Virus record (IMG/VR): IMGVR_UViG_3300001525_000092
Coordinates: 84,149-148,148 of that record
Length of the DNA stretch: 64,000 bases
Reading direction: 5' to 3' (one strand)
Source: a virus
Taxonomy: Duplodnaviria; Caudoviricetes
Shown here: positions 933 through 30,168 of the stretch, in pieces
How the letters are laid out: each line of letters begins with the position of its first letter
Numbering within the stretch: position 1 is the stretch's first letter
Translations under genes and position numbers: made by a program
Notes under the pieces: model-generated
The model's input: only the letters and a program-made list of their open reading frames with translations
Told to the model about the DNA's origin: nothing
The model's database searches: none

Positions 933-1625
933 ATGATGATTATGAATACAAACAAGATGAATGCTTTTGAGTTGAAGAATGTAGTGAACAAGATGATAGC
1001 AGACAATGCTATCACCAAGTTCAATATGATGAAGCTATTTGATACTGATGAAGACTTGATAGACAAGTTCTTGAAAGAAGAGAACATGTCTTTTATTGAC
1101 ATGAGTGAGCTTCACCTTAACTTTGCTGTCACTATCAGAAATGAGAACGGACGTCTCAAGAACTGTAAGATCATTCCTTGTTTCATTGTCTATATGGGCA
1201 ATCATCAGTTCAAGGCAGTTCCTGTTCCTGGAGAGCTAGCTTCTCGAAAGTATGATGCTAACTTTAATCTCAAGATCTTTGATGACATGTTTGCAACAAG
1301 ATATGGTAATTGTTGGTTTCACTTGTCAAAAGACAATGAGTTCAAGTTTGATGATGCTTCTACTTCTAACACAGTTTTCTTCTCATTATTAGAAGATGCA
1401 AAGAACTACTTGAACACTTATACTAAGTGGTTTCATACAAAGAAGAAAGAAGATGATGATAGAAAGAAAGATGGAATCTTCACAGTAGCAGAGATTGCAG
1501 AGAAGCTTGGAATACCAGTAGACAATCTGAAGATTGTTGATGATGCTGACACAGACCATATGTACTTCGATGGAGTCAATCGAGAGTTGTATGGAGAGCT
1601 CCCAGATTCAGATTACATCTATTAA
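933..1625 (+). CDS. hypothetical phage protein (paralog family)
   Basis: 230-aa ORF after promoter-like motif at 887; TVAEIAEKLGIPVDNLKIV tag. Confidence 0.75.
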   Translation: MMIMNTNKMNAFELKNVVNKMIADNAITKFNMMKLFDTDEDLIDKFLKEENMSFIDMSELHLNFAVTIRNENGRLKNCKIIPCFIVYMGNHQFKAVPVPGELASRKYDANFNLKIFDDMFATRYGNCWFHLSKDNEFKFDDASTSNTVFFSLLEDAKNYLNTYTKWFHTKKKEDDDRKKDGIFTVAEIAEKLGIPVDNLKIVDDADTDHMYFDGVNRELYGELPDSDYIY

Positions 1626-17500: not shown

Positions 17501-17514
17501 TTAATTATTGGCAT
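11572..17514 (-). CDS. giant virion structural protein (tail/baseplate-associated)
   Basis: 1980 aa, rich in Y/S/T/N/D; PDPVDPDPTPNPEP linker before C-terminal beta-rich, Ig-like repeats. Confidence 0.65.
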   Translation of the reverse strand: MPIINVNAFQNGISKKNYLTSYTDAYLKQSLANLGQRNAAKGDSIGFSSFSIQDLFPNYTGDFNENDLLVQVVLYPTENRVGGYLKLLQDDGSLKELSSEEANTKFVVDNIDHSIRGLEDGFDEDSIMLSDVDRINNVDYWHKESATFFKTDNSFIYKVVGHHESGVYGEYDNEYVCEEVSDSGEFIEGFRIFIVNEENLMQSDDPDENGPSSRYAHEKLALIHLHKNYDKVDDSLRNHEWVLDVYKVKENLGEGANNEYYIGLGDARDLLEESRIDELIAKYADSSNINSPSSVISNVMSDIIDGNGINQIAGIVSKCYSVPVDYDTPDNANWSIPSDFISDKWKKMSASSSFSSDGTGQMAPDADGNQNIDADIDIIVGDTLEHTNGKLEYFVSDTKQLYPRLLEIYNQVMYKSDSNIKIKERIVSELTYKAWRSSLSMSSVPDETNLYVMYFPTNYEFKYNCNSNDESLIYNMTGSIPVQYEYINELGKDTISNVTDNVSFLKKLVHLDGTEPNQYIYANSEIERTVLYDMNVNYSSLDDTIILSIDWKESFIMPYINSNGYWVINGLATNNYAKGIVADQSSLMIVASTDLHEFNPYKNVLSGIGLDVIKSLSSSDFEKKTFSSNYIDTNANVGAHNTFSIEAWVPSDEYLKSIRETETFTYFKDAIIMNISSTELEKDSTYIQYAYYSGSSIHKDSELVIGTEEEIWNAYNNRQYSYGKYEDWSIGNDSTYSYIYRYARRSGTIQDIIGGVGTVTSFWTCEEKTDYSTNSTYYAFDYIKNPKYNNEVALDFNYICNLEQYIKYYAKYSFSPDDYEHTQLLFDPVLQLLKNNTISYNSSLVYPVILNHNADYYNPTLGIDVTKGIGMSYEGDEQYFNSMNLAIEFDDNIGHDDGHVSYVLNGTNTRRFTIDSYTTTYIEPYSYYGTYYAEDDTTKSFPKVGLIKGNLEHYTTYGIIPKVISMTNFPKEYIPNSEYNPNGYVGNQYPMVDLKEVTVRNASFWNRSNILVADKVQFNPALSYGVIYNAYIGSAYDQENKNVLHIGTSETNINLGTTSMVDKDSIHHLTKMDKMQIDFDTIELNGYTSVKGEIITSRPSWTTYAIDNYNTYTTTIYPIGILEEREELESGKIPSGTSALLSNVKFKLRKKKQTRYYVQNESRNVSYLNASVFLTQNNISNDKDTVWHGDATLLTTRRKENIDSYLAMYNVLANLNENYPGTWQAMSYYYNTGNIWQGVSEDYVANTLSRIHPTIDEWNSYGLSYICELSKNIPLYTIEDGKNVPIMEDTTDKDDYGNPIRVQKTGTAYVLNFKNATDVLNDHSWYLELSTDLTDKENTLAEGHLGNAYDEERTTRLVLGNPIEVSYVDVLSYQAPIETKTYTYVSAYMYASSYTEYWSCDGCDLCSAKDCPMIDKCSKSKVQGFFTPAYGFVIGNLDTDAFTYANENVYTYTHVRYRKVEDSNDYERYTVMSYWPTTIYKTKDDFSTDEEFDAFITKTEDGVSKKLTYYPSTGEYKWIDSTLDEAKSYIAKEVPIGQNVISSYILSYIEEYGKLNTDLRMKVSSVNPSKITYLNEDNITYSDLSFTYAYITQDPTEVTIGGQTYVPLITNFNEATMPCAFSYYEWKTDIAYYDATIRHINIREVMTSHSVPEFWNERLVKIDNTDNPVKPDPVDPDPTPNPEPGYPKPTEKVYDYKLETSCSSIYGYAAYGEDEVILKKDGNVTDDKYLSFIINASYKEVDQQWKAQLNDNGVAVWVEDDAATKKLLEKAEWKSSNDYAVTMSDNSISTNYTKSSNTYKLNKEVSKNNSSNIVNGTVTITYKNLKKSIDIDIRYASKTTTNYVFDVYIDGVKMSSSSSITFNYGDTSQKNIKVYCYKITYLNGNYVDSNSVDYTIKNKETGKEQTMYFDNIASTITEVDKSDKTYPNGYVCDHTVKVRSEIATSNTKYTETWVIQPNTDDNNNPYRNTRKTIDLTRKKK

Positions 17515-17515
17515 G

Positions 17516-20500
17516 TTATCTCAAATCAAATATGTACTTCAGTCTCCATAGTTTCTTTTCCTTAGACATGTTGAGCTTGATAGGAACAGTATCATAAGAG
17601 ACATCATAGTAATTATATAAAAATAGGTACTCATCATCATTCAATTCACTCATCTTGATTAGTTTCTTGAATATATCTACTGTCACACTTTCTTCTTCTA
17701 GTTCTTTCATTCTATCATAGTCTACATAAGAACTATGTATATATGAAAGTTGAGTAGGAAGAAGAACAAACTTATTTTGATTGAAGTTCTTGTACTCTAA
17801 TGAAGTGAAGGAATCATATATAAGATGACCATCCAATTCAATCACTTTCTTCTTGTCATACTTCTCTTCATATATGTTGATAGGAACATATATGTCTACA
17901 TATCCTGTTCTGTTATATATTGGTGAGTCACTTATAGAGTTGAGTGTTCCTTTTCTTATCAAGACATCATCTGTCTCTTTGTACTTTAGATTCCACTGAT
18001 TAGATATAGAAGAAACAGGCAATAGAATAGGAACAATGTCTCCGAAGTATCTTGTTAGCTTGTACTTGAACAAAGCATCATCATGTCTGATGACAGATAT
18101 TTCTGTTGACTTGTCATTCATGTCATTGCTTGCTTTAGTAGATGTATATAGCGTATCTAGATTGAATGTATAAGGAATTACTCTAGCATCTATGCTTACT
18201 AAAGACTTGAATATGTCTCTATTTAGCATAGGCATCAATTCTCTGAGTATTTTCTTGAAGTACAATGGATCTTTCTCAATGTCTGTTCCATTCACATACT
18301 TGAACATCTTTATTATTCTCTCAAAGTTCTTGTTGCTTAGTGCATATAAGTCAAATGATCCTATTGTGTTGTCAAGAGCTAAGTCTATCATGTAATATCC
18401 ATATACTTTTCCATCCACTAGCTTTGTGCTCAACAATGTGTTCTTCAATCCAAGATAGTTGTCATCTTGTCTCAATGAAGTCTTCTTGACATTCATGCTA
18501 GAGTACAAGAAGTCATTGAGAACTTTTCCAGTAGCTACTTCAAATCTAGACTTAATCCATTTTCTCTCATCATCTGGTTCTACTAAAGCAGACAATGAAG
18601 ATAATTCTTCATCCGTCAGTTCTATCATTGTGTTAGAATCATACTGTGTGTGTCGCAAGTACTTTGTTGTGACATTGTTGTTGTCATCTACCACTTGCAC
18701 TTCTTTGAATCCTTCTTCTTTATATATAGCATATAGTTCTGTATCAGAAAGTTCTTGCTCATATATCTTGTCAAACAACGGAACTAAGCAATTCTCATTC
18801 TCTTCTATAATGATGTCATGCATGTCATCAATCTCTGGATTGATGTATCTTGACTTTATTCCTTTATAGTGATCTCTTTCCCAGTTAGACTGTGTCTGGA
18901 CTTCATACAAGTACAAGTCTTTGTATGACTTAGTGTTTCCGTAGTCTTCTAAGTCAATAAGCTTTCCTGGTCCATATATCTGATCATTGAGCTTGAAGCA
19001 TTCTATGTCAAAGCACAACTCAACATATCTCACTCCATCATCGAACTCTATCTTCCAAACATCATAAGTCTCATCATAGTTCTCATCTTTCATAGATACA
19101 TAGTCAATGATCTCAAAGAACTCTTTGAATGACTTAGGATATTCTGTAGCAGATATAGGTGTATAGCAATCCTTGACAGACACCTTGCCGTCATCTAACA
19201 CTAAGTTCTTTTCTCTTATATAAACCATAGATGCCCATCTCTTTGCTAAGTCACTAGGCTTCTTTCTCTTCTGGTTGCAACACAATTCTGTGTACCACCA
19301 ATACAGATGCTGCTTGTTCAAGAACTGCGCTTTGAACTTTCTAGTATGTCTAAGAAGATCAAGACAATCTATTTCGTTGTCATTCTTGTACTTCTCTAGC
19401 ACAGCTTGCATGTTGTACTGATCTATCCATACAACATTAGTCACTTTTTCTTTCTCACTTTCTCTTATAATATATTCTTCATCTATATAGTTGTTCTTCT
19501 TGAATGTGTCTGTAGCATATATAGTCTTTCCATTGAACATGACAGGATAGAATCCAAAAGTATCTTGAGCAGAAAGATATGACTTCAGTGCAGATGTCAC
19601 TTTATCATGAAGTGTATGCGCAGTGTATGTGATTTGCCATTCTTTAGTATTAGAATGTCTCATCTTCTTGTAGTCATACTTTCCATTAGTGTTGTTGAAG
19701 TAAGTGGCAAGAGAAGAATCAATGTCTGTAGTGATATATTCTTGTATGTGATAGTTCTTCAAGAAATAACTATTTAAGTTATATATAGAGCAGTAATAAG
19801 AAAGAGAAGTAGAGTTGATAGGATTAGGTATCATGACATAGCTAAGCTCAGGATAGTAAATGTTAGCTTTTCCTGCATTCACTATTCCTGTCTTGTCGCT
19901 GCTAGAGCATCCTAACAACTCATATATAGGATCATAGTACTTCTTAGAATCATACACATCTTCTATCACTCTATAGAAAGCTTGAGTTCCTTCTATAGAT
20001 CCTGTCCAGTTTATTTCACCATATAGTCCTTCCCAATCAGGCCTCTCTCCATATCCACACACATAAGTCATAGGCTGGCCAGACGAAGAGAGAGCATAAG
20101 TCGTCTCTGCATTGTCATAGTCAGGAGTGCCATCATTCTTAAGCAAGTATGTTTGCTTCATCAATACATAAGTGTTGGCAGTGTAAGCATAGTTCTTTGG
20201 AATGTTCATGTACCCATAAGAGTCGCATGCTATTCCTGGTATGTGGAAGTCTATGATTTCATTTCCTTGTATGATGTAGCTAGAAGAAATCTTTTCTTTT
20301 CCTTCTTCATCTAATGACATCAATGGACATATTTGCTTGTATATAGAAGCAGATTCTAGAACAATGTCAGGATATGACAACTCTATTCCTTTCTCTTCAC
20401 ACCAACTAGATATAGTCGAGTACTTCATCTGTCTTCTTATGTTGTCTATGTAAGCAGACACTTTCTTCTCATCATAGTACTTGTTTATGTCAGACAAGCT

Positions 20501-22351
20501 TATTCCTATCTCAGAAGGATTGACATATCTAGCATAAGGGTCAGGCAAGTAAGCATAAGAATATCCATCATGCTCGCTATCATGATAAGTTGAGACATAG
20601 TAAGAAGAATCAAGATATCCTTTCTTGAATAGCATTCCTGCACACACATAAGAATTAGAGATAGAGTTCTCTTCATTAGCATACATCCAAGCATTATTTG
20701 CTGAAGAGAGATGAAGAACATCAGACAATAATTTTGTGTTGAAGAATGAGTTTCTGTTCCCGTACACACTAGAAGATGTGAGTATGGTCTGGACAGGAAA
20801 CACTAGCTTGTCACTTTCTTTAGCAGATATAGTCTCTATCATAGGATTCACTATGATTGCAAACTTGTCTATCTTGTCAGTGATCATGCTGAAGTCATAT
20901 AGGATTCCTTTGTAGTAGCAGTTGTTGTTAGAAAGACTTTCCCATTCTACTTCATCTACCCAGCCTTCTTTTGTCTTCATCACACTGAACCAATAGAACT
21001 GATAAGATTCTATAGATTCTTTATACAGTGATGGAATGTACTTATGAGGAGTATCTGTGTATCTAGTAGAAGCATTGTCACCAATAGGAACTACCATAGA
21101 GTAGTTGAACTCATCACCTTCTTGCTCTTCTACTAGAGCAGGCATAGACTGCACCATCTTAGGATACTGTCCATACAATATGTTGCTTCCTTGATTTCTA
21201 TTGAATGCAAAAGATGTGTTGATCACATAAGGATGATAGTCTGAAGAAGATGAAAGTTTCCATCTACTGTACATCTTAGTAAGCTTGTTAGAGAATTGGT
21301 AGTCTATGATGCTTGCTTCATTCATAGAAGGAAAGCAGTCACTCATCAAGTTAGTCACGCTACCAGACTTCCATACGAGATCTCCTGTCTCTGAATCCAT
21401 CTTGAGAACATCTTCAGCATACTCATCATAGTCAGATACAAAGTCATGCATCTTCAGGCTGTTGCCATTGAGCATGTACTTTCCTGTTATGTAGACATTG
21501 CATCTAGCAAATTGCTTCTTCTCTTTAGAAGAAAGAACATCATCTATGTTGAATCTGAATGCTAATGGAATGACTTGCTTCATAGCAACATTGTTCATCT
21601 TGTATGTTCTTGCTATAGTAGCATCTACATTGTTGTTAGTGTACTGCTTAATGAATATGTCAGATATAGTAGTGTCTGATGCTATGCAAGTTCCTCCATT
21701 CATCAAGTCAATCCCATATAATGTGATAGACTTAGAATTGCTAGAGAGCAATGCAACTTTACTGTCTACTTTCTTCATGTACTTCTTAAGATAAGCAGAC
21801 AAGTAATTGTACTTAGCAGAAGGCAATGTTTCTTCTTCTCTTACTTTCACAACTATGTCTTTATATATAGAAGAGTTAGCATTCTGTAGAAGTATAGAAA
21901 TAGTGAATGAATCAGGAAGATGATTGATGTCATCAACATACATAGGAGCAAAGAACTCATACTGATATCCTGTCTTCTTGTAGCTTATTCTCTTGCATCC
22001 ATATTCTACATCAATGTTTCTAGGTTCTTTAGGATTAGATCTATCTAGCTTGCAAATCTCTTTCTTATTGAAGTCATAACCATTCTCATAGAACACATCT
22101 TTGTTGTATAAGTAGAACTTTTGCAAGTCATAGTCATAAGAGCTTCCTAGCAAGTTGCAAGTGACTACTTTTCTTGATAGAGATGTGCTAGCACTATCTA
22201 TCACTGCACCTCTCACTCTACTCTCATATACATATATAGTAGTGTTGTCTTGATTAGTATGTTGTCCTTTGTAGTCATAGCTTGTCAAGTTGCATGCAAT
22301 CTTGACATTGCCTGAATAAGAAGGAATGATTCTTAGCAATGGCTTGATCAT
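17516..22351 (-). CDS. giant hypothetical protein, probably virion structural
   Basis: 1611-aa uninterrupted ORF coupled to the 1980-aa gene; late-type motif upstream. Confidence 0.65.
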   Translation of the reverse strand: MIKPLLRIIPSYSGNVKIACNLTSYDYKGQHTNQDNTTIYVYESRVRGAVIDSASTSLSRKVVTCNLLGSSYDYDLQKFYLYNKDVFYENGYDFNKKEICKLDRSNPKEPRNIDVEYGCKRISYKKTGYQYEFFAPMYVDDINHLPDSFTISILLQNANSSIYKDIVVKVREEETLPSAKYNYLSAYLKKYMKKVDSKVALLSSNSKSITLYGIDLMNGGTCIASDTTISDIFIKQYTNNNVDATIARTYKMNNVAMKQVIPLAFRFNIDDVLSSKEKKQFARCNVYITGKYMLNGNSLKMHDFVSDYDEYAEDVLKMDSETGDLVWKSGSVTNLMSDCFPSMNEASIIDYQFSNKLTKMYSRWKLSSSSDYHPYVINTSFAFNRNQGSNILYGQYPKMVQSMPALVEEQEGDEFNYSMVVPIGDNASTRYTDTPHKYIPSLYKESIESYQFYWFSVMKTKEGWVDEVEWESLSNNNCYYKGILYDFSMITDKIDKFAIIVNPMIETISAKESDKLVFPVQTILTSSSVYGNRNSFFNTKLLSDVLHLSSANNAWMYANEENSISNSYVCAGMLFKKGYLDSSYYVSTYHDSEHDGYSYAYLPDPYARYVNPSEIGISLSDINKYYDEKKVSAYIDNIRRQMKYSTISSWCEEKGIELSYPDIVLESASIYKQICPLMSLDEEGKEKISSSYIIQGNEIIDFHIPGIACDSYGYMNIPKNYAYTANTYVLMKQTYLLKNDGTPDYDNAETTYALSSSGQPMTYVCGYGERPDWEGLYGEINWTGSIEGTQAFYRVIEDVYDSKKYYDPIYELLGCSSSDKTGIVNAGKANIYYPELSYVMIPNPINSTSLSYYCSIYNLNSYFLKNYHIQEYITTDIDSSLATYFNNTNGKYDYKKMRHSNTKEWQITYTAHTLHDKVTSALKSYLSAQDTFGFYPVMFNGKTIYATDTFKKNNYIDEEYIIRESEKEKVTNVVWIDQYNMQAVLEKYKNDNEIDCLDLLRHTRKFKAQFLNKQHLYWWYTELCCNQKRKKPSDLAKRWASMVYIREKNLVLDDGKVSVKDCYTPISATEYPKSFKEFFEIIDYVSMKDENYDETYDVWKIEFDDGVRYVELCFDIECFKLNDQIYGPGKLIDLEDYGNTKSYKDLYLYEVQTQSNWERDHYKGIKSRYINPEIDDMHDIIIEENENCLVPLFDKIYEQELSDTELYAIYKEEGFKEVQVVDDNNNVTTKYLRHTQYDSNTMIELTDEELSSLSALVEPDDERKWIKSRFEVATGKVLNDFLYSSMNVKKTSLRQDDNYLGLKNTLLSTKLVDGKVYGYYMIDLALDNTIGSFDLYALSNKNFERIIKMFKYVNGTDIEKDPLYFKKILRELMPMLNRDIFKSLVSIDARVIPYTFNLDTLYTSTKASNDMNDKSTEISVIRHDDALFKYKLTRYFGDIVPILLPVSSISNQWNLKYKETDDVLIRKGTLNSISDSPIYNRTGYVDIYVPINIYEEKYDKKKVIELDGHLIYDSFTSLEYKNFNQNKFVLLPTQLSYIHSSYVDYDRMKELEEESVTVDIFKKLIKMSELNDDEYLFLYNYYDVSYDTVPIKLNMSKEKKLWRLKYIFDLR

Positions 22352-22370
22352 TAGATTCTATGTATGATTC

Positions 22371-22385
22371 ATTTAGTTAAAAATT
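22371..22385 (-). promoter_or_regulatory. putative late promoter AATTTTTAACTAAAT
   Basis: Identical 15-mer at 3511-3525 (+); core ATTTTTA recurs before structural genes. Confidence 0.5.
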
Positions 22386-22487
22386 GCTTAGATGTTATGT
22401 TAACTATTTTTAACATTAAATGAATAACCTATCATAGATTATCTATGTTATTCTTATATAGAAAGCATAAAAATAAAGAACTTTACA

Positions 22488-22586
22488 ATGAAGTCACTCA
22501 ACTTACATAGCAGTCTATCAATGATGAAACGACCTTTTGGTTGCTTCTCATCTTGGTGTGGTTCTATGTTTGGAAGACATTCATAA
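22488..22586 (+). CDS. 32-aa small ORF upstream of the tRNA array
   Basis: MKSLNLHSSLSMMKRPFGCFSSWCGSMFGRHS*; A-rich start context. Confidence 0.4.
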   Translation: MKSLNLHSSLSMMKRPFGCFSSWCGSMFGRHS

Positions 22587-22679
22587 TGAAGTTCATGATT
22601 AAGAGTTGATTCTAGTCATGAATATATGATGGAACAATTCTTAGTAAACATTTCTTTTATATATAAAGATTAGATAGTT

Positions 22680-22725
22680 GAGAAGAAGTTCCAAATATGC
22701 ATAAGGAATTTTTTCTCATTTTTTT
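22680..22725 (+). terminator. intrinsic terminator
   Basis: GAGAAGAAGTTCC...GGAATTTTTTCTC plus T-run. Confidence 0.6.
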
Positions 22726-22735
22726 GTTATAATCT

Positions 22736-22763
22736 TTGAAAAAATCCTGGTAATTACTATATT
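22736..22763 (+). promoter_or_regulatory. promoter TTGAAA-N16-TATATT driving the tRNA array
   Basis: Matches the repeated motif; about 40 nt upstream of tRNA-Phe. Confidence 0.7.
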
Positions 22764-22805
22764 ATAAATGTCAATCAAATAATATTCAATATTTAATTGA
22801 TAAAC

Positions 22806-22878
22806 GGATTGATAGCTTAGATGGTCTGAGCGCTGGACTGAAAATCCAGAGGTCGTGGATCGTTACCACGTCAATCCA
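22806..22878 (+). tRNA. tRNA-Phe(GAA)
   Basis: GGATTGA/TCAATCC acceptor; CTGGA-CTGAAAA-TCCAG; atypical T-loop ATCGTTA. Confidence 0.9.
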
Positions 22879-22917
22879 CTAAGAAAATTGTTCTTTGAAA
22901 TAATGAATACAATGAAT

Positions 22918-22991
22918 GTTCTGTTAACTCAGTTGGATAGAGTACGATACTTTTAATATCGGAGTCATGAGTTCAAGTCTCATACAGAACA
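22918..22991 (+). tRNA. tRNA-Lys(TTT)
   Basis: GTTCTGT/ACAGAAC; CGATA-CTTTTAA-TATCG. Confidence 0.93.
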
Positions 22992-22997
22992 CAACAA

Positions 22998-23285
22998 GAT
23001 TGTCAAGAGATCTCTTCCGAAAATGCAAAGGAATGAGAATCTCAGCATCATTGAAATGTCTTATCAGATATATCGGACAATGATTAATCTGGTTGCTAGA
23101 AAGAACTTGGACAGTTCAAATATAGTTGTTAACTCAAATGCTCACGAGCTCTAGCTGGATATAATCAATGATGAATGATGACATTGAGAAGACATGCATG
23201 AAGTCCGATGCATAGACATGGTCAATATGATGTTTGATCTTCTTCTCATAGGTCATTGTTCTTGGATTGAAAGCGAACAAGAACT
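22998..23285 (+). ncRNA. putative structured ncRNA 1 in tRNA array
   Basis: Nested helices seen by eye (see findings); no ORF. Confidence 0.5.
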
Positions 23286-23306
23286 AAAACAACAAATCGC
23301 TTGCAT

Positions 23307-23391
23307 GGAAGTTTGGCAGAGTGGACTATTGCACTGGTCTTGAAAACCAGAGGTCAGAGATGATCCATAGGTTCGAATCCTATAGCTTCCG
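23307..23391 (+). tRNA. tRNA-Ser(TGA)
   Basis: GGAAGTT/AGCTTCC; CTGGT-CTTGAAA-ACCAG; long variable arm. Confidence 0.93.
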
Positions 23392-23397
23392 CTACTT

Positions 23398-23469
23398 GGG
23401 TGATTGTCAGAGTGGTTTATGTCTGGGTCTGCAAAACCCAGTAGGTTGGTCCGATTCCAACATCACCCT
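23398..23469 (+). tRNA. tRNA-Cys(GCA)
   Basis: GGGTGAT/ATCACCC; TGGGT-CTGCAAA-ACCCA; U73; T-loop TCCGATT. Confidence 0.9.
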
Positions 23470-23475
23470 CAGAAT

Positions 23476-23708
23476 AGATTGCAATAGACAAAGTTGTTGC
23501 CTTAGATGGCTTGTCAAGAGACTGATAAGTTCTGGTTGAAGTGATACGAGATGTCATACTAAAACTCCAAAATCCGGAAAGTTAAGTCCAGTCCTCAGTT
23601 GCATATTAAAAGAATCAATGCTGCAGTAAATTGATTCTATATAAAGTTGCAAGTTGTCTATGAATGCAGATGGTAAAGGTTCATAGAAACTCTCGTCTAC
23701 TGCAATCT
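23476..23708 (+). ncRNA. putative structured ncRNA 2 (~233 nt, closed by a 14-bp stem)
   Basis: AGATTGCAATAGAC pairs with GTCTACTGCAATCT (one mismatch); internal hairpins. Confidence 0.6.
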
Positions 23709-23744
23709 TACAATGGTTACTTATATTGATGGTGACCATGCAAT

Positions 23745-23818
23745 GGTTACTTAGCTCAGTTGGTTAGAGCGCAACATTCATAAAGTTGAGGTCCAAGGTT
23801 CGAATCCTTGAGTGACTA
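23745..23818 (+). tRNA. tRNA-Met(CAT), elongator-like
   Basis: GGTTACT/AGTGACT; CAACA-TTCATAA-AGTTG with an A:A mismatch at the base of the loop. Confidence 0.8.
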
Positions 23819-23828
23819 CAAGTTAATT

Positions 23829-23906
23829 GCATCGGTGGTGTAACTGGAGGTGCACATCTGACTTCCAATCAGAAGGCTTACGCGAGTTCGAATCTCGTCC
23901 GATGCT
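23829..23906 (+). tRNA. tRNA-Gly(TCC)
   Basis: GCATCGG/CCGATGC; TCTGA-CTTCCAA-TCAGA. Confidence 0.92.
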
Positions 23907-23914
23907 CATTTTTC

Positions 23915-23988
23915 GGGGTTATAACTCAGTTGCATAGAGTAAGAAACTTCTAATTTCTAAGTCGTAGGTTGGAATCCTACTAACCCCG
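23915..23988 (+). tRNA. tRNA-Arg(TCT)
   Basis: GGGGTTA/TAACCCC; AGAAA-CTTCTAA-TTTCT; D-loop GC and T-loop TTGGAAT. Confidence 0.9.
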
Positions 23989-24031
23989 CTAGTGCACTTG
24001 GTTTATTTTTAATTAAATAAATTAGGTTTGA

Positions 24032-24961
24032 ATGTATTATAGATGTAAATTTTGTAATAAAGAATTTGATAATAAAAGATCAAAAGGACAACATGAATCA
24101 TTTTGTGATTTAAACCCAAACAAAAGATATTCATGGAATAAAGGAAAAAGTGCAAAGACTGATGATAGAATATTAAAATCAAAAGAAACATTTATAAGAA
24201 GGTATAAAAATGGAGAAATAAAATTTAATCCACACATATGGACACAAGAAGAAAAAAATAATCTTTCTAAAAAACGAAAAGAATGGCTAATGAAAAATCC
24301 TGATAAGCATCCTTGGAGAAATATGAAGCATAATCGTAGTGAGCCTTGTGAAGTTTTAAAAGATTTTCTTAGAAAAAATAGCATTCAATTTATAGAAGAA
24401 TATAATCCAAAAATACAAGATCATAATTATTCTTTAGATATTGCATTTCCTGATATAAAATTTGCAATAGAGGTAAATGGTAATCAACATTATAATAATG
24501 ATGGATCATTAAATGAAAGTTCATTATATAGACATAAATTATTAGAAGCTAATGGATGGAAAATATTAGAATTGCATTATACAAAATGTTATAATTTTGA
24601 CATATCAATATTGGATAAATACGATAACATAGAAGATTTTTATGATAAAGATTACGTAGGAAAATATTTTTCAAGAAAAGAAGAAAGAAAAAGAAAAATA
24701 GAAGAAGAAAGAAAACAAATAATAGAAAATAAAAAAAGAAGAAAATTTCAGAAAGAAGAAGAATTCATTGAAAGAAAAAAAATATTATTAGATTTGTTAA
24801 ATAATTCAAATATTGACTTTAATAAATTCGGATGGGTAAATAAGGCACATCAATATCTATCTAACAAAAATGTTTGGTTTCATTCAAATATGAATAGACA
24901 AATAAAAAAATATATACCTGAATATATTAATTCTTTTTTCTGGAGACACATAAGGACATAA
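24032..24961 (+). CDS. putative homing endonuclease (C2H2-like Zn finger + DUF559/Vsr-like PD-(D/E)xK domain)
   Basis: CKFC..H..FC; YSLDIAFPDIKFAIEVNGNQHY...R...LEANGWKIL; AT-rich; inside tRNA array. Confidence 0.75.
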   Translation: MYYRCKFCNKEFDNKRSKGQHESFCDLNPNKRYSWNKGKSAKTDDRILKSKETFIRRYKNGEIKFNPHIWTQEEKNNLSKKRKEWLMKNPDKHPWRNMKHNRSEPCEVLKDFLRKNSIQFIEEYNPKIQDHNYSLDIAFPDIKFAIEVNGNQHYNNDGSLNESSLYRHKLLEANGWKILELHYTKCYNFDISILDKYDNIEDFYDKDYVGKYFSRKEERKRKIEEERKQIIENKKRRKFQKEEEFIERKKILLDLLNNSNIDFNKFGWVNKAHQYLSNKNVWFHSNMNRQIKKYIPEYINSFFWRHIRT

Positions 24962-25025
24962 TAAAGGAGAGAACTAGCTTATCGAGGAAAAACCCATGAG
25001 CAAAGTCAACCTCCTTGTAGTTGAA

Positions 25026-25101
25026 TAGAGTAGTATATCAATAGGCTAGATTTCTGCATTTGGGATGCAGAGGTTGTCGGTTCGAGTCCGGTCTACTCTA
25101 C
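25026..25101 (+). tRNA. tRNA-Pro(TGG)
   Basis: TAGAGTAG/CTACTCTA; CTGCA-TTTGGGA-TGCAG. Confidence 0.88.
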
Positions 25102-25109
25102 AAATAATT

Positions 25110-25181
25110 GCTCCTGTCGATTAATGGTTAGGTTCTCAGTCTCCAAAACTGATGGTGGTGGTTCGATTCCATCCGGGAGTG
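25110..25181 (+). tRNA. tRNA-Trp(CCA)
   Basis: GCTCCTG/CGGGAGT; TCAGT-CTCCAAA-ACTGA. Confidence 0.9.
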
Positions 25182-25208
25182 CTATGTCAAATATTTAAGC
25201 ATTGAGAT

Positions 25209-25544
25209 ATATATATCATTGAAGATGGCAAGAGAGTTCATTCTTACACTACAGAAGATGGTATCAAGAAGACTTACATACTGCCTAACTTCAGAAAGCC
25301 AAAGACATGGAAAGAGATGAAGAAAGAAGATCCGTGGGCTAAGTATTTGAAGAATAGCTCAACTTCTCATTCTTGGGTATCAGACCAGTTAGATGACAAG
25401 CATGCTATCAAGTTGCAACGTGTCACCAACAAGAAAGTCATCAATGAAGGAATCCAAGAATACATTGATGCTTTTGATGAGAGCTTTGAATGTTGGTTTG
25501 ATGAGACTTTGAATGAATGGAGATCTCTTTATGAGGTAGCATAA
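25209..25544 (+). CDS. hypothetical protein inside tRNA array (start uncertain)
   Basis: The 25317 ORF frame stays open back to TGA 25203, giving a coding-like ~110-aa frame without an upstream ATG. Confidence 0.5.
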   Translation: MYIIEDGKRVHSYTTEDGIKKTYILPNFRKPKTWKEMKKEDPWAKYLKNSSTSHSWVSDQLDDKHAIKLQRVTNKKVINEGIQEYIDAFDESFECWFDETLNEWRSLYEVA

Positions 25545-25553
25545 GATATACAT

Positions 25554-25625
25554 GGTGGATATCGTTCAATGGTAGGACAGAAGATTGTGGTTCTTCTAAT
25601 GAGAGTTCGATTCTCTCTATTCACC
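25554..25625 (+). tRNA. tRNA-His(GTG)
   Basis: G-1 plus GTGGATA/TATTCAC-C; GAAGA-TTGTGGT-TCTTC. Confidence 0.92.
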
Positions 25626-25639
25626 CAATAAAATAAATT

Positions 25640-25724
25640 GGAGAGTTGCCAGAATGGTTAATGGAGCAGTTTGCTAAACTGTAGTCGAGAAATCGGCTTC
25701 TAGGTTCGAGTCCTAGATTCTCCG
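25640..25724 (+). tRNA. tRNA-Ser(GCT)
   Basis: GGAGAGT/ATTCTCC; GCAGT-TTGCTAA-ACTGT; long variable arm. Confidence 0.93.
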
Positions 25725-25739
25725 CTTGAATTTTTATTA

Positions 25740-25822
25740 CGGACTGTGGTGTAATGGCAGCCACGCCAGACTTAGGATCTGGTGTCAGAGATGACGTGTG
25801 GGTTCGAATCCCACCAGTCCGA
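25740..25822 (+). tRNA. tRNA-Leu(TAG)
   Basis: CGGACTG/CAGTCCG; CCAGA-CTTAGGA-TCTGG; long variable arm. Confidence 0.93.
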
Positions 25823-25823
25823 C

Positions 25824-25991
25824 GAAGCACAATCATGTAAATCAACAGGTTAGACCTATAGATACATGAAAGTAAACATGAAGGAAGCTGACTGAACAAC
25901 TTCATCGGTTGAATTAAAATGTATTAATAATAGGACGAGGTAAGACTGCAAACCTTAATTGATATTGCGCGCCATGCATTGTTGCTTCCCA
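25824..25991 (+). ncRNA. putative structured ncRNA 3 (~168 nt, ends in CCA)
   Basis: GAAGCA-CAAT pairs with ATTG-T-TGCTTC, then CCA; internal hairpins; fills the Leu-Leu spacer exactly. Confidence 0.6.
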
Positions 25992-25992
25992 T

Positions 25993-26078
25993 GCCTCGAT
26001 GGCGGAATTGGTAGACGCATTGGACTTAAAATCCAATGTCCAGAAATGGACGTGCAGGTTCGATCCCTGTTCGAGGTA
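25993..26078 (+). tRNA. tRNA-Leu(TAA)
   Basis: GCCTCGA/TCGAGGT; TTGGA-CTTAAAA-TCCAA. Confidence 0.94.
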
Positions 26079-26124
26079 CTTTTTAACATAGATTTTATTT
26101 TTAACTATCTTAAACTTAAAAAAA

Positions 26125-26796
26125 ATGAAATCATTATCACAATACATAACTGAATCTATTGACAAGTCAAAGATTGTCACTAGTTGCAAAGCATACAATG
26201 ATCTTTCTAAGATGCTCAAGTCATTAGGAATGGTATCAAGTGAAGAAGGATCAGAAAATACTTCTTATGAAGACATCATCTCAGCAATAAAGAAGACTAT
26301 TGGTGAAGGTCCTTATTATGTGGTATCAGACAGAAATCCAAAGTCTGCATTCAGTGAGATTGCAAGCAAAGCAGACATCAAGTCAGGTACTGGAACAGAC
26401 AATGGATTCATTGACTTAGTTTCTATCAACAAAGAATACAATGATAGTGATGAAAAGAAGAATGATCCTACCTTTGCGTTCAATGCATGGAAACTTAAGA
26501 TTAAGAATGCAATGTACCAGAACAAAGTCTTGAAGAATGGCAAAGGTCTCACACAAGAGTTAGATGCTAAAGTGAAGCAGATGAAGATGTTGTTTGACTT
26601 AGATCCTATAAAGCTAAGTGCAGTTGCAAGGCACGGAAGAACATCGATAAAGTCTACTTACTTCAAAGTAAGACCTGCTATATTCATTGTCAATGATACT
26701 GTAGTTCCCGGAATAGAGTTTGTAAGTGATACATACACAAGCACTAGAGACGAGAACATCTATGTGTTCTCAGATGAGAAGTTGAAAGACATCTAA
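26125..26796 (+). CDS. putative internal head/ejected protein (MKSLSQYITES N-terminus), paralog 1
   Basis: N-terminus resembles the T4 capsid-targeting sequence; shares GxGPYYVV, DPIKL and VFSx motifs with the next ORF. Confidence 0.6.
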   Translation: MKSLSQYITESIDKSKIVTSCKAYNDLSKMLKSLGMVSSEEGSENTSYEDIISAIKKTIGEGPYYVVSDRNPKSAFSEIASKADIKSGTGTDNGFIDLVSINKEYNDSDEKKNDPTFAFNAWKLKIKNAMYQNKVLKNGKGLTQELDAKVKQMKMLFDLDPIKLSAVARHGRTSIKSTYFKVRPAIFIVNDTVVPGIEFVSDTYTSTRDENIYVFSDEKLKDI

Positions 26797-26830
26797 AATA
26801 TTATTAATCAATTAATATATTATTCAATAA

Positions 26831-27493
26831 ATGAAGTCATTGACACAATACATAGCAGAGTCGTTAGATTCTAGTATCATCAGAGACAAAGCATTCAAGT
26901 TCACTGCATTGTCAAAAGTACTTGACAGAATGAGTGTTCCGACTACTAGATCAGTGAGAGCACAAGCTCAAGAATCCATCAAGAAGTTCTTAGGAAAAGG
27001 TCCATACTATGTAGTTAGATCTGACATGAAGTTCACCAAAGATGTCTTCAAAGAAATTGTTGACAAAGCTGCGGTTGGATCTCATGGCATAGTTGATGTG
27101 ATTGACATCAATAAGCTTTACAAAGATCAGATGGACGAATATGGAAATGCTAGTCCTGAAGTGAGAAAGATGAGAATCAAGAAAGCACTAGAAGTCAACA
27201 AGACACTCAAAGAGAAAGGACTTACTAATGACTTAGATACTCTCCTTAAGAGAATGGAAGACTTAGTGAAAGAAGATCCTATCAAGCTAGATCATTCATA
27301 TACTTTAGGCAACTCTAAAGGAGACTTAGAGAGAAATGTCAACTTCTTCCCTGGAGCATGCATCATTGATGACAAGCTTGTTCCGGTGCTCCAAGCATAC
27401 AATGAGTCAATGTATGCTAAAGACAAGACATTTGTGCTAGTGTTCAGTGAAAGCACACTGAAGAATGGCATCAATGACACTACAGACAAATAA
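26831..27493 (+). CDS. putative internal head/ejected protein (MKSLTQYIAES N-terminus), paralog 2
   Basis: Tandem paralog of 26125-26796. Confidence 0.6.
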   Translation: MKSLTQYIAESLDSSIIRDKAFKFTALSKVLDRMSVPTTRSVRAQAQESIKKFLGKGPYYVVRSDMKFTKDVFKEIVDKAAVGSHGIVDVIDINKLYKDQMDEYGNASPEVRKMRIKKALEVNKTLKEKGLTNDLDTLLKRMEDLVKEDPIKLDHSYTLGNSKGDLERNVNFFPGACIIDDKLVPVLQAYNESMYAKDKTFVLVFSESTLKNGINDTTDK

Positions 27494-27580
27494 AAGACAA
27501 AGTATTTAATACTTTTTAATAGAAATAGTTGTCTATCTAGACTATATTGATATTATAATTAAATGAATAAGTAAATAACA

Positions 27581-27694
27581 ATGAGAACAAATCAACATAC
27601 ATATTATCAAGATACTATTATAGAACAGGCCATTAATTATGATAGCTTGCTCAAGTCTTGTTGTATATGTGATGAGATTGAATTTATCAATTAG
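27581..27694 (+). CDS. 37-aa small ORF upstream of the second tRNA block
   Basis: MRTNQHTYYQDTIIEQAINYDSLLKSCCICDEIEFIN*; followed by hairpin 27734-27765. Confidence 0.4.
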   Translation: MRTNQHTYYQDTIIEQAINYDSLLKSCCICDEIEFIN

Positions 27695-27780
27695 CCTCCA
27701 CTGTTTTAAAACGACAACATAAACCTCAAGACAAGAGCAATGCAATTCATTTGTGTTGCTCTTTGTTGATTCAACATAAT

Positions 27781-27854
27781 AGGTGATTATATCAGTTGGT
27801 TAGATAGCTTGCCTGATAAGCAAGAGGTCGCAAGTTCAAGTCTTGCATCACCTA
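27781..27854 (+). tRNA. tRNA-Ile(GAT)
   Basis: AGGTGAT/ATCACCT; CTTGC-CTGATAA-GCAAG. Confidence 0.93.
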
Positions 27855-27949
27855 CAAAAAAAATGAAAAAGTTCTTTGAAATGATGAAATAATTCCTAGA
27901 TATTCTATATTAATAATGTACGTAACAAAACAATAAAAATTTAATTATT

Positions 27950-28153
27950 ATGAATATGAATAGATTAAAGAACAACATTAAGATACTTGATATATTGAGA
28001 CAACTTGCTCATGAGTTTCCTAATATGAGATTTCATCAGTTGCTTATGGCAGTGAATGCTACTATTGATGAAGATCAGTTCTATGAAGAATCAAGTGTTA
28101 CTTTAAATAGAATTAGAAAATTCCTTAAGAATAAGCAAGAGATGTTCAATTAA
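27950..28153 (+). CDS. small hypothetical phage protein
   Basis: FPNMRFHQLL...DQFYEES motif; promoter motif at 27884-27911. Confidence 0.65.
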   Translation: MNMNRLKNNIKILDILRQLAHEFPNMRFHQLLMAVNATIDEDQFYEESSVTLNRIRKFLKNKQEMFN

Positions 28154-28168
28154 TGTAAGTATATAAAC

Positions 28169-28242
28169 GGTGCGTTTGACAAGTGGTTAAGTCGCCAGCT
28201 TTTCACGCTGGTATTTCATCAGTTCGAATCTGATACGCACTA
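28169..28242 (+). tRNA. tRNA-Glu(TTC)
   Basis: GGTGCGT/ACGCACT; CCAGC-TTTTCAC-GCTGG. Confidence 0.92.
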
Positions 28243-28251
28243 CTTTATATT

Positions 28252-28291
28252 GGGTAGATAGGTAAGTGGTTAAAACGGCTTGACTGTAAAT
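28252..28291 (+). pseudogene. 5' half of tRNA-Tyr(GTA), broken just after the anticodon loop
   Basis: GGGTAGA TAGGTAAGTGGTTAAAACGG CTTGA CTGTAAA, then unrelated sequence; I found no TCAAG...T-arm...TCTACCC 3' half in the array. Confidence 0.75.
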
Positions 28292-28521
28292 AATTTAATT
28301 GTTGTATGTTCAAATCATCATAGAATGATACATGTAAATAATGTTATTCAATAGATTATTTACAAAATTTATCTATTGAGAACACATTTAACAATTGGAA
28401 AGACTATTATCATTTAGAACGATAGAATGGGTCAAAGGAACAAATGATAATCATGACGAAACAGATGCAAGAAATTGCATAGGAGATTGATGTGTGGCTA
28501 GTCAACCTTAAGACTTATCTA
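28255..28521 (+). ncRNA. putative structured ncRNA 4 fused to the tRNA-Tyr half
   Basis: TAGATAGGT/ACTTATCTA closing stem; several long internal hairpins. Confidence 0.5.
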
Positions 28522-28595
28522 GGTGCATTAGTTCAGTTGGTTAGAGCGCTACCCTGTCACGGTAGAAGTCATCGGTTCGAATCCGATATGTACCG
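28522..28595 (+). tRNA. tRNA-Asp(GTC)
   Basis: GGTGCAT/ATGTACC; CTACC-CTGTCAC-GGTAG. Confidence 0.93.
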
Positions 28596-28605
28596 CAAAA
28601 GAAAT

Positions 28606-28676
28606 TGGACTATAGTATAATGGCAGTACAGAAGATTTTGGTTCTTCTAGTCGGAGTTCGAATCTCCGTGGTCCAA
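28606..28676 (+). tRNA. tRNA-Gln(TTG)
   Basis: TGGACTA/TGGTCCA; GAAGA-TTTTGGT-TCTTC. Confidence 0.92.
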
Positions 28677-28683
28677 CAAACAT

Positions 28684-28756
28684 TGAGATATGGTGTAATG
28701 TGGTAACATCCAAGTCTCTGGAACTTGTGTTCTTCGTTCGAATCCAGATATCTCAA
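28684..28756 (+). tRNA. tRNA-Gln(CTG), distorted T-stem
   Basis: TGAGATA/TATCTCA; CAAGT-CTCTGGA-ACTTG; T-stem TCTTCG/CCAGA is mismatched. Confidence 0.75.
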
Positions 28757-28775
28757 CAAAAAAATGAAAAGTTCT

Positions 28776-28804
28776 TTGAAATTTTTAATATAACTTTCTA
28801 TATT
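28776..28804 (+). promoter_or_regulatory. promoter TTGAAA-N17-TATATT
   Basis: Repeated motif inside the tRNA array. Confidence 0.7.
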
Positions 28805-28833
28805 ATAAAAGTAAATACATAAAAATGTATATC

Positions 28834-28907
28834 GGGCTTGTAGCTCAGTCGGTTAGAGCAGCACACTCATAATGTGACGGTCTCGGGTTCAAATCCTGAC
28901 TGGCCCA
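28834..28907 (+). tRNA. tRNA(CAT), probably Ile2 (lysidine type)
   Basis: GGGCTTG TAGCTCAG body is Ile-like; CACA-CTCATAA-TGTG. Confidence 0.85.
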
Positions 28908-28922
28908 CTTTAATTTTTAATT

Positions 28923-29753
28923 ATGCCTAATCAATATACAAAATCATCAAATGGATTATTAGAATATAAAAAATACCATTATTTCTATAAAATAACTAAT
29001 CGTTTAAATGGTAAATATTATTATGGAATACATTCAACTGATAATTTAAATGATAGATATAAAGGTTCTGGTATAAGATTACATGAAGCATATAAAAAAT
29101 ATGGCATTAATAATTTTAAGAAAGAAATATTAAAATTTTTTAAAACTAGAAAAGAGGCTTCAAAATATGAAAATAAAATAGTTACAGAAGATGAAGTTAA
29201 TTCTGATAAATGTTATAATTTAACTGTAGGAGGTGATAAAGGTATATCCAATGCTTTTAAAGGAAAACATCATACAGAAAAGACAAAACAAATTGTATCT
29301 AAAAAATTAACAATACCTGATGATAAGTTGATTCTTAAAAGGAGAATGATGCATAAAGATGGTATTAAAAAATCTGTTAAAATAGAAGATATTCAAACAT
29401 ATAAAGAAAATGGATGGATTTTAGGAGGATCAAATTCTTCTTATATTCATACTAAGGAAGAATATTTAGATATATTAAAAGAAAGAAAAAGAAAACGAAT
29501 TGAAAAGGAAAATATATTAAAAGGAAATAGAATAAAAGAAAAGAAAAGAATTCATTCAATATTATTAAATATTGCAAAAGATGATAACATAAAATTAAAT
29601 AAATTTGGATGGAATAAAATTATTATTAAATTATTAAAAGAACAAAATATTATTATTAATTCTAATATAAGAAGATTTATAACAAATAATTGTCCTGAAT
29701 TCTTTAATTATAAAGAAGTTTATAATAAAACATATATCGCGGATGTGGTGTAA
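28923..29753 (+). CDS. GIY-YIG (Seg-like) homing endonuclease with NUMOD3
   Basis: YFYKITNRLNGKYYYGIH...YKGSG..L..A.KKYG..NFKKEIL...YNL..GG; FKGKHHTEKTK; stop codon lies inside the next tRNA. Confidence 0.85.
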   Translation: MPNQYTKSSNGLLEYKKYHYFYKITNRLNGKYYYGIHSTDNLNDRYKGSGIRLHEAYKKYGINNFKKEILKFFKTRKEASKYENKIVTEDEVNSDKCYNLTVGGDKGISNAFKGKHHTEKTKQIVSKKLTIPDDKLILKRRMMHKDGIKKSVKIEDIQTYKENGWILGGSNSSYIHTKEEYLDILKERKRKRIEKENILKGNRIKEKKRIHSILLNIAKDDNIKLNKFGWNKIIIKLLKEQNIIINSNIRRFITNNCPEFFNYKEVYNKTYIADVV

Positions 29754-29808
29754 AGGTAGCATACGAGGCTCATAACCTCGAAGAGCCGTTCGAGTCGGAC
29801 ATCCGCAA
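29738..29808 (+). tRNA. tRNA-Met(CAT), initiator-like
   Basis: CGCGGATG/CATCCGCA with a C:A top mismatch; CGAGG-CTCATAA-CCTCG; short T-stem. Confidence 0.8.
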
Positions 29809-29818
29809 CAAAATAAAT

Positions 29819-29892
29819 TGGAACTTAGCTCAGTTGGTTAGAGCAATTGACTGTTAATCAATAGGTCATCGGTTCGAATCCGATAGTTCCAG
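29819..29892 (+). tRNA. tRNA-Asn(GTT)
   Basis: TGGAACT/AGTTCCA; ATTGA-CTGTTAA-TCAAT. Confidence 0.94.
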
Positions 29893-29996
29893 CAAACGGC
29901 AACGATTATTTAGAGGCGGCCTAACTTAAGGCTACTCAATTGGATATGGTCAAGCTAATCACTTGAGATGGTCAAGCATCGCCAAACTCTTGACAT

Positions 29997-30070
29997 GGGC
30001 TGATAGTTCAGTTGGTTAGAACATTTGCTTTGCAAGCAAGAGGTCCTGAGTTCGATTCTCAGTCGGTCCA
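29997..30070 (+). tRNA. tRNA-Ala(TGC)
   Basis: GGGCTGA/TCGGTCC with G3:U70; loop TTTGCAA. Confidence 0.94.
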
Positions 30071-30080
30071 CAACACAATT

Positions 30081-30152
30081 GCTCCGATAGCACAGTGGTA
30101 GTGCAGCTCACTTGTAATGAGCAGGTCGTTGGTTCGAATCCGACTCGGAGCT
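30081..30152 (+). tRNA. tRNA-Thr(TGT)
   Basis: GCTCCGA/TCGGAGC; GCTCA-CTTGTAA-TGAGC. Confidence 0.94.
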
Positions 30153-30168
30153 CTCCTCTGCTGATTTT

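Follow-up and report, generated by a model that had tools for sequence, protein, structure and literature searches.

Introduction

In the tRNA array of an IMG/VR phage record, the genes for tRNA-Cys and tRNA-Met are separated by a stretch of DNA in which a sequence-only reading had seen a closed, multi-stem RNA, proposed to be undescribed and to be released by tRNA processing. Whether such an RNA forms a real family, how it folds, how it could be made and what it might do are the questions raised by this locus. The DNA studied here, called the window throughout (64,000 nucleotides), is part of a 148-kb phage record with an estimated completeness of 52%, which encodes a T4-like large terminase, portal, DNA polymerase and topoisomerase II. 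The array itself holds 23 tRNA genes, all on the + strand (22806-30153), as detected with ARAGORN and Rfam. The features of the element and of its neighbours are collected in Table 1.

Table 1. Positions of the RNA element, its predicted parts and its flanking genes (window coordinates, except for the last row)
Feature	Position	Strand	Remarks
tRNA-Cys(GCA)	23398-23470	+	No encoded CCA; ARAGORN and Rfam; kept upstream neighbour
Whole inter-tRNA stretch, predicted excised RNA	23471-23744	+	Conserved core 23476-23708
P1 5' strand, closing stem	23476-23489	+	Pairs with 23695-23708; 13 of 14 pairs, one A-C mismatch
P2 region, variable hairpin	23490-23517	+	GCC/GGC 23499-501/23508-10 in the window
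P3 5' strand GAGA, then P4 5' strand CUGA	23518-23525	+	Partners 23691-94 and 23595-98
P6-P5 arm	23532-23591	+	P6a, insert, P6b, internal loop, P5, apex L1
P6a CUGG/CCAG	23532-35/23588-91	+	
Lineage-specific insert in P6-P5 arm	23536-63	+	
P6b ACU/AGU	23564-66/23585-87	+	
Internal loop CCAA	23567-70	+	
CCA of internal loop	23567-23569	+	Proposed tertiary partner UGG 23671-73
P5, short	23571-73/23581-83	+	
L1 word UCCGGA, centre CCGG	23573-23578	+	
P4 3' strand UCAG (23595-98) and PA-PB arm	23595-23652	+	
PA UUGCA/UGCAA	23599-603/23648-52	+	6 of 7 pairs change on both sides
PB	23611-19/23630-38	+	9-bp inverted repeat; 8 of 9 pairs change on both sides
L2 loop of PB	23620-29	+	
L2 word CUGCAG in 10-nt loop (G-CUGCAG-UAA)	23621-23626	+	
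PC hairpin	23653-23690	+	GUU/AAC 23653-55/23688-90, bulged G, 8-bp inverted repeat 23657-64/23680-87
P3 3' strand UCUC	23691-23694	+	Abuts P1; closes four-way junction without unpaired linkers
P1 3' strand	23695-23708	+	8 of 10 aligned P1 pairs change on both sides
Window-specific 3' tail	23709-23744	+	Homologues without it
tRNA-Met(CAT)	23745-23819	+	Downstream neighbour; Arg, Val or Pro in relatives, so not conserved
Type-C extra 5' hairpin loop	L041:8820-8832, L042:4631-4643, L045:8833-8845, L268:2861-2873, L274 about 1545-1557		

The element and its locus

The four inverted repeats on which the proposal of an RNA had been built are all present in the sequence. Three of them are P1, PB and PC of Table 1, and the fourth, CTTGTCA/TGATAAG (23510-29), has 7 bp including one G-U. 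The absence of a credible ORF was borne out as well: no ORF occurs on the + strand, and the minus-strand frame of 61 aa (61 codons) is interrupted in other lineages, L038 and L241 differing by a 2-nt indel.

The Rfam 15 set (4227 models) includes GOLLD, ROOL, manA, tmRNA, RNase P, 6S, SRP, pRNA, group I intron and YrlA. Applied to the window, it identified tRNAs and no other family at gathering scores, and even at E<=10 the element itself remained without a match; in four homologues no match over the element was obtained at E<=5. RNase P, tmRNA, SRP, 6S and Y RNA were considered and rejected, as neither their motifs nor Rfam matches were found; the first four had already been set aside by the sequence-only reading, tmRNA and 6S included. 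In GenBank phages, blastn gave no match for three family members, the window element among them, and a sequence look-up found no words shared outside the window's own genome. A search of sequencing runs gave no RNA run among the holders listed, only two small-share DNA rows. No published description of the family was found in the literature covered, to which the candidate list of a csRNA survey (PMC10690425) did not belong.

Other features of the locus were recorded alongside. Two adjacent giant genes coding for 1980 aa and 1611 aa lie on the - strand of the window (11572-22351), in an order kept clade-wide; neither protein has a PHROG match, and neither the 1611-aa family nor its ~2000-aa neighbours in relatives have a recorded Pfam match. 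According to ARAGORN, the window array (22806-30153) has no tRNA-Tyr and no tRNA-Val; tRNA-Tyr is present in the relatives L036, L039, L041, L042, L044 and L045, and tRNA-Val in L038 and L241. The spacer between tRNA-Lys and tRNA-Ser(UGA) (22993-23306) folds better than its shuffles (z = -2.9) and has no Rfam match at E<=10; almost its full length is conserved in L044, and blocks of it in L263 and L241. This spacer seems to represent another non-coding RNA family of the array, distinct from the present one. The 36-nt tail that lies between P1 and tRNA-Met is unique to the window copy; it includes a 13-nt direct repeat of the 5' end of tRNA-Met (23711-23 = 23741-53) and a 9-bp hairpin (23713-21/23731-39) resembling this tRNA's acceptor stem, and may have been left by the collapse of a duplicated tRNA or by a repair event. 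In the long tRNA-Arg/tRNA-Ser spacer of L038, a weak tRNA-like match (1767-1823, - strand; 23 bits, below threshold) may correspond to a degenerate tRNA.

Members and distribution of the family

Relatives were reached through the 1611-aa protein, encoded 1.1 kb upstream of the element, whose homologues are 29-54% identical. In the abundant L241-type phage, the cluster of this neighbouring protein counts 1431 member sequences. The contigs of these homologues share the gene order terminase, tRNA array, 1611-aa gene and ~2000-aa gene, and tRNA-Cys is followed in the relatives by a gap of 213-274 nt; these gaps align with each other, with conserved blocks and evident compensatory changes. Alignment of the 1611-aa family added six IMG/VR jumbo contigs and more metagenome contigs, two of them named human-gut, and two final look-ups added L268 and L274. 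Single-protein locus searches, using the 1611-aa protein or the terminase, gave no close relative in IMG/VR. Altogether, the RNA element was found in 23 contigs, as 19 distinct sequences; the length in the family is 213-275 nt. The carriers are ~290-kb phages with T4-like packaging genes, and some of the contigs bear the names of human-gut metagenome assemblies. Among the carriers, one 294-kb genome is complete, has terminal repeats and holds a single strong copy; the element is also single-copy in the 148-kb record.

In every copy but one, tRNA-Cys is the direct upstream neighbour, the element lying 0-6 nt past it in L036, L038, L040, L041, L042, L044, L045, L241-L254, L263, L268 and L274, and the tRNA that comes after it varies (Met, Arg(ACG), Arg(UCU), Val or Pro). 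Three family models, R1, R2 and R3, give matches in the inter-tRNA stretch of the window with 246, 86 and 126 bits, respectively, R2 having been trained on a lineage other than the window's. R2 also locates the remaining lineages exactly behind tRNA-Cys at 74-89 bits, with partial matches of 29-34 bits on L040 and L042, and R3, a model of the 3' domain with no type C in its training, detects L045 and L268. Pattern searches were abandoned: a hairpin-pattern scan of viral contigs (AGAATCAAT..ATTGATTCT) gave 34 matches, all by chance and with dissimilar flanks, and motif scans (CCAA/ACTCCAA..ATTAAA..AGATGRTAAA) gave at least 117 and 80 matches, all chance or coding and without a CM match.

A second paralogue, of type C, is present in L042 (4433-4700, - strand), a phage that also has a type-A copy behind tRNA-Cys. 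The type-C copy of L042 is not behind tRNA-Cys; it comes after a 69-aa ORF and before an unusual tRNA, for which an anticodon of 4 nt was called. Type-C members have an extra 5' hairpin with the invariant loop CAUUCUAGAUGUA, which contains a third palindrome, UCUAGA. A type-C paralogue was sought in the window and not found. Some related phages, namely L039, L257, L260 and L261, are without the element, and the RNA family is therefore dispensable. In the more distant L257, L260 and L261, another tRNA comes immediately after tRNA-Cys, and L039 has neither tRNA-Cys nor the element. An IS605 OrfB/TnpB-type gene (PF01385, PF07282) was observed in L039 (14870-16075), directly after its 1618-aa gene.

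Secondary structure

The single sequence of the window element folds marginally (z = -2.0), 7 of 200 shuffles folding equally well, and its covariation-based structure (-59.0) lies 8.5 kcal/mol above the unconstrained minimum (-67.5). It is the comparative signal that takes the predicted fold far beyond chance. MAFFT cannot align the 5' half across lineages, so the structure was drawn by hand on one lineage and R2 was built from it. In the model-fitted alignment, 97.1% of cells pair, vs 77% in shuffles and 34-46% with slid partners; both sides change in 39 of the 60 pairs, a count that leans towards the model as the alignment was fitted to R2, and none of 500 shuffles reaches any of the observed measures. 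Because of this leaning, RNAalifold on plain MAFFT alignments serves as an independent check. With four lineages it recovers P1, PA, PB and PC (18 of 46 pairs compensatory), and with ten 3' domains 20 of 27 pairs are compensatory; the PA-PB arm is supported independently on both alignments. In the pair table, 32 G-U cells would be A-C mismatches if read on the other strand, consistent with an RNA transcribed in the same direction as the tRNAs.

The comparison with Rfam and the homologue search with covariation that had been suggested as checks on an undescribed RNA have both come out in its favour, and the reading of the element as an RNA gene is supported. That the family is real, structured and uncatalogued is taken as close to certain. 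Most of the structure first described is confirmed: the closing stem and two of the three enclosed hairpins are real and show compensatory changes. The first hairpin (23510-29) is found in the window and L044 and not in other lineages, and clashes with the covarying P3 and P4. The conserved link to tRNA-Cys, the four-way junction, a tertiary contact and the self-complementary loops go beyond what had been noticed before.

On these comparative data, the predicted fold is composed of P1, a variable P2 and a linker-free four-way junction of P3, P4, PA and PC, the arms of which are the P6-P5, PB and PC hairpins. P2, between P1 and P3, varies in length and sequence by lineage. P3 is GAGA/UCUC in the window, UAGA/UCUA in L036 and GAGG/CCUC in L042, and P4 is CUGA/UCAG in the window and UUGA/UCAA in the L038 group. 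P6 also covaries, with GAGUAAACU/AGUUUACUC in L036, UGUAACU/AGUUACA in L045 and UCGAAU.ACU/AGUAUUCGA in L042. The PA-PB arm has conserved joiners, AUAUUAAA and UAUAUAAAGU (AUUAAA, AUAAA). In PC, 7 of 8 pairs change on both sides, and L036 has a CA/UG extension; the PC loop (23667-79) is the conserved CAGAUGGUAAAGG, of which GAUG..AAA is invariant in the alignments. Two other pairings were tried and rejected: GAGACUG with CAGUC.UC has no support in L036 or L038, and for an extension of PA by CAG/UUG in place of P4, L036 and L041 favour P4.

A contact is proposed between the PC loop (UGG) and the internal loop of the P6-P5 arm (CCA), suggested by the joint variation of the two sites. CCA in the internal loop after P6b accompanies UGG in the PC loop in 8 lineage groups, and UCA accompanies UGA in L040/L042a (type A) and, independently, in L268/L274 (type C). 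For the window and for L042a, the two sites were read by eye from the sequences.

Self-complementary loops

Both hairpin loops at the ends of the P6-P5 and PA-PB arms hold self-complementary words, which differ between lineages. The L1 centre, CCGG in the window, is CUAG, CGCG, ACGU, UCGA or CAUG elsewhere, all 7 types being palindromic, and the L1 words of other lineages are UCUAGA, UCGCGA, ACGCGU, GACGUC, GUCGAC or AGCAUGCU. Seven different self-complementary words are found in L2; besides CUGCAG of the window, they are GGUACC, GUCGAC, AUGGCCAU, UUGCAA, AUGCAU and GGCGCU (with G-U), or only GGCC. A Watson-Crick palindrome of at least 6 nt is present in 6 of 8 L2 loop types (P ~3e-4, and ~1e-5 for G+C-rich palindromes, against random loops of family composition). 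These P values are indicative only, since the choice of palindromes and of the L1 centre was made post hoc. Taken one at a time, the loops do not stand out from shuffles of the same composition (P 0.04-0.7). There are exceptions: the L2 of L041 is palindromic over 4 nt only, and that of L042a requires a G-U pair. In several lineages kissing would be geometrically tight, as L1 is a tetraloop there; in type C, L1 lies within a junction.

In each word, the innermost pair would join adjacent nucleotides, which is impossible within one chain, and homo-oligomer kissing loops are therefore indicated. The same argument was used in a cryo-EM study of OLE, ROOL and GOLLD, with GGCC changing to GAUC or AGCU; where one palindrome replaces another, in OLE L9.3 and GOLLD L21a, cryo-EM shows intermolecular pairs (PMC12286853). 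Copies of the RNA thus probably bind each other through L1 and L2. The two paralogues of L042 have different words at both loops, UCCGGA and GGCGCU in type A vs AGCAUGCU and AUGCAU in type C, a difference to be expected if self-pairing had to be exclusive to each paralogue.

Proposed biogenesis and mechanism

P1 starts 3-6 nt past tRNA-Cys; in most lineages, a few nt separate its end from the next tRNA. With such close packing between a CCA-less tRNA-Cys and the next tRNA, the tRNA-processing enzymes would be the natural release route. Terminator-like sites were sought in 22300-24100 and none was found; the idea that P1 with a U-tail acts as a terminator was rejected, the window having no U-tail and no terminator-like site. 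A promoter-like site occurs before tRNA-Phe, at chance frequency.

In the proposed mechanism, the element would be transcribed together with the tRNAs. Its 5' end would be produced by an RNase Z-type enzyme trimming the 3' end of the CCA-less tRNA-Cys, and its 3' end by RNase P cleavage at the 5' end of the next tRNA (tRNA-Met in the window), giving a molecule whose ends are locked in P1. At least two copies could then pair loop to loop, L1 with L1 and L2 with L2, into a homodimer or a larger symmetric assembly. As a guess, the role during infection might be that of an RNA-only assembly or scaffold.

Comparison with known RNAs

A likeness to the T4 RNAs C and D had been suggested; it holds for position and does not extend to sequence or structure. 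T4 species 2 and then species 1 RNAs directly follow a tRNA gene (annotation of X03016.1). Like the present element, the T4 stable RNAs species 1 and 2 (rnaC/rnaD) are small RNAs located right after a tRNA gene in a tRNA cluster and presumably released by processing; species 2 begins 2 nt after tRNA-Arg, and the window element, starting at 23471, 1 nt past tRNA-Cys. However, the T4 RNAs are two molecules of 120 and 137 nt, whereas a single closed RNA of ~240 nt is predicted here, and neither the tRNA-like T-arm GGTTCGAATCC of species 1 nor the encoded CCA of species 2 is present in it. On the T4 species 1/2 stretch (L047 4615-4877), R1, R2 and R3 gave no match at E<=1 to 10, and the only T4 match of the family models (8.7 bits, E 8.2) is elsewhere in the record.

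In the HIV-1 DIS, a self-complementary loop word forms a kissing homodimer, and L2 resembles it in format: purines flank a 6-nt self-complementary word, all within a 10-nt loop. No relation by descent is implied, and here two such putative elements would be combined in one multi-arm RNA. The phi29 pRNA is a phage RNA that oligomerises through two mutually complementary, non-palindromic loops and forms a ring on the portal. It shares with the present RNA a loop-loop oligomerisation, predicted only in the latter, but its loops are not palindromic and no pRNA match was found in the Rfam scans.

Closer parallels come from the recently described RNA assemblies. GOLLD and ROOL, large ornate RNAs of phages and prophages, often lie beside tRNA islands (PMC12286853). 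They form nanocages by symmetric kissing loops, as seen by cryo-EM (PMC12286853); the palindrome switches between homologues in GOLLD L21a and OLE L9.3 are the same signature as that of the candidate kissing loops L1 and L2. In contrast, GOLLD and ROOL have ~580 to >800 nt vs 213-275 nt here, where one four-way junction is predicted and no cmscan match was obtained. Cages and oligomers are possible for RNAs of <200 nt (bioRxiv 10.64898/2026.07.01.735769). Among these, manA is compact (<~200 nt), partly phage-borne and forms oligomers through kissing loops (bioRxiv 10.64898/2026.07.01.735769), so that small size does not preclude quaternary structure. However, its interfaces (L5-L7', L8-L9') join different loops that are not self-complementary, it sits in 5' UTRs and not between tRNAs, and there is no Rfam manA match here.

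Weighing of alternative explanations

The reading preferred here, a self-associating RNA released from a tRNA precursor, is given a probability of roughly 0.6. Its palindromic loops might instead be bound by a symmetric (dimeric) phage or host protein, the RNA acting as an RNP scaffold and not pairing with itself. Palindromes are also typical of the targets of dimeric nucleic-acid-binding proteins, and such a protein could equally select them; the conserved single-stranded blocks (AUUAAA, AUAAA, GAUGGUAAAG) could be protein contacts, and the array has several small conserved ORFs without assigned function. However, words as different as CUGCAG, GGUACC, GUCGAC and UUGCAA among lineages would oblige a sequence-specific protein to co-evolve each time, GGCGCU of L042a is self-complementary only as RNA, via G-U, and no co-occurring protein gene was found, which makes a protein-bound scaffold unlikely. 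Similarly improbable is a spacer acting in cis, which would guide or time the processing of tRNA-Cys and its neighbours, or shield the precursor from nucleases, and be functionless once released. Sixty covarying pairs, a tertiary contact and two kept palindromes far exceed the needs of a processing signal; the L042 type-C paralogue is not beside tRNA-Cys, and related phages have tRNA-Cys without the element. Such a spacer would nevertheless account for the tight fit between tRNAs, 3-6 nt past tRNA-Cys, a link that holds across lineages, and other spacers of the array are likewise structured and conserved.

An element acting as DNA, for instance in recombination or replication, as the target of a homing endonuclease or as a MITE-like mobile insert, is very improbable. 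It could be suggested by the 14-bp terminal inverted repeats, the palindromic hexamers, the homing-type genes (HNH, DUF559) in relatives' arrays and the rearrangement of arrays between phages; but a MITE-like insert would have many copies per genome with target-site duplications, and the 148-kb record has one copy and the complete 294-kb genome one strong copy. Moreover, the helices are kept through G-U pairs that are A-C on the other strand, the stems covary with free sequence, which is an RNA signature, and the site beside tRNA-Cys is fixed. A tRNA gene that has decayed, is permuted or is interrupted by an intron is hardly credible as an explanation, and so is homology to T4 species 1 and 2. 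Both flanking tRNAs are complete, no T-arm is present, and no tRNA or group I intron matches the window element at E<=10; for T4, the three family models find nothing on the species 1/2 stretch, and the T-arm GGTTCGAATCC of species 1 is absent from this RNA. These observations stand against the lack of tRNA-Tyr and tRNA-Val in the window's ARAGORN list, the resemblance of the PC loop to a D-loop (AGAUGGUA) and the fact that T4 species 2 and 1 together fill 263 nt right after a tRNA. A group I intron or permuted tRNA was also rejected because of the complete flanking tRNAs, the missing Intron_gpI match at E<=10 and the wrong order of elements: the word GAGACUGAUA near the 5' end resembles an R element, in the wrong order for a group I core. 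A CCA end at ACUCCA was rejected too, since this site is ACUUCA in L040, L042 and L268 and sits in P6b and the internal loop.

The self-associating RNA thus remains the preferred reading, and a more specific form of it can be proposed at even odds. In this form, a ~220-270-nt RNA of gut jumbo phages, made from a tRNA precursor by RNase Z and RNase P, would form a protein-free complex, either a symmetric homodimer or something larger, closed or filamentous. Its two self-complementary loops would be fixed in place by the four-way junction and the loop-loop contact, and the orthogonal words of paralogues would prevent cross-assembly.

Significance

Natural RNA-only assemblies have been recognised recently, with OLE, ROOL and GOLLD in 2025 (PMC12286853) and manA and others in a 2026 preprint (bioRxiv 10.64898/2026.07.01.735769). 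The present family adds a small, well-defined case from jumbo phages, with relatives assembled from human-gut metagenomes. Its comparative signature is unusually clear, as covariation supports the secondary structure, one tertiary pair and two candidate symmetric intermolecular contacts. Two paralogues with different loop words in one phage amount to a natural specificity experiment, and the small size of the RNA makes direct synthesis, mutational swaps and cryo-EM practicable. The fixed site behind tRNA-Cys leads to a concrete model of biogenesis, in which tRNA-processing enzymes would act as maturases of a non-tRNA RNA, a situation that has long stood unexplained for T4 RNAs C and D. If true, the RNA would represent a new class of quaternary structure among natural RNAs, one that is small and tractable.
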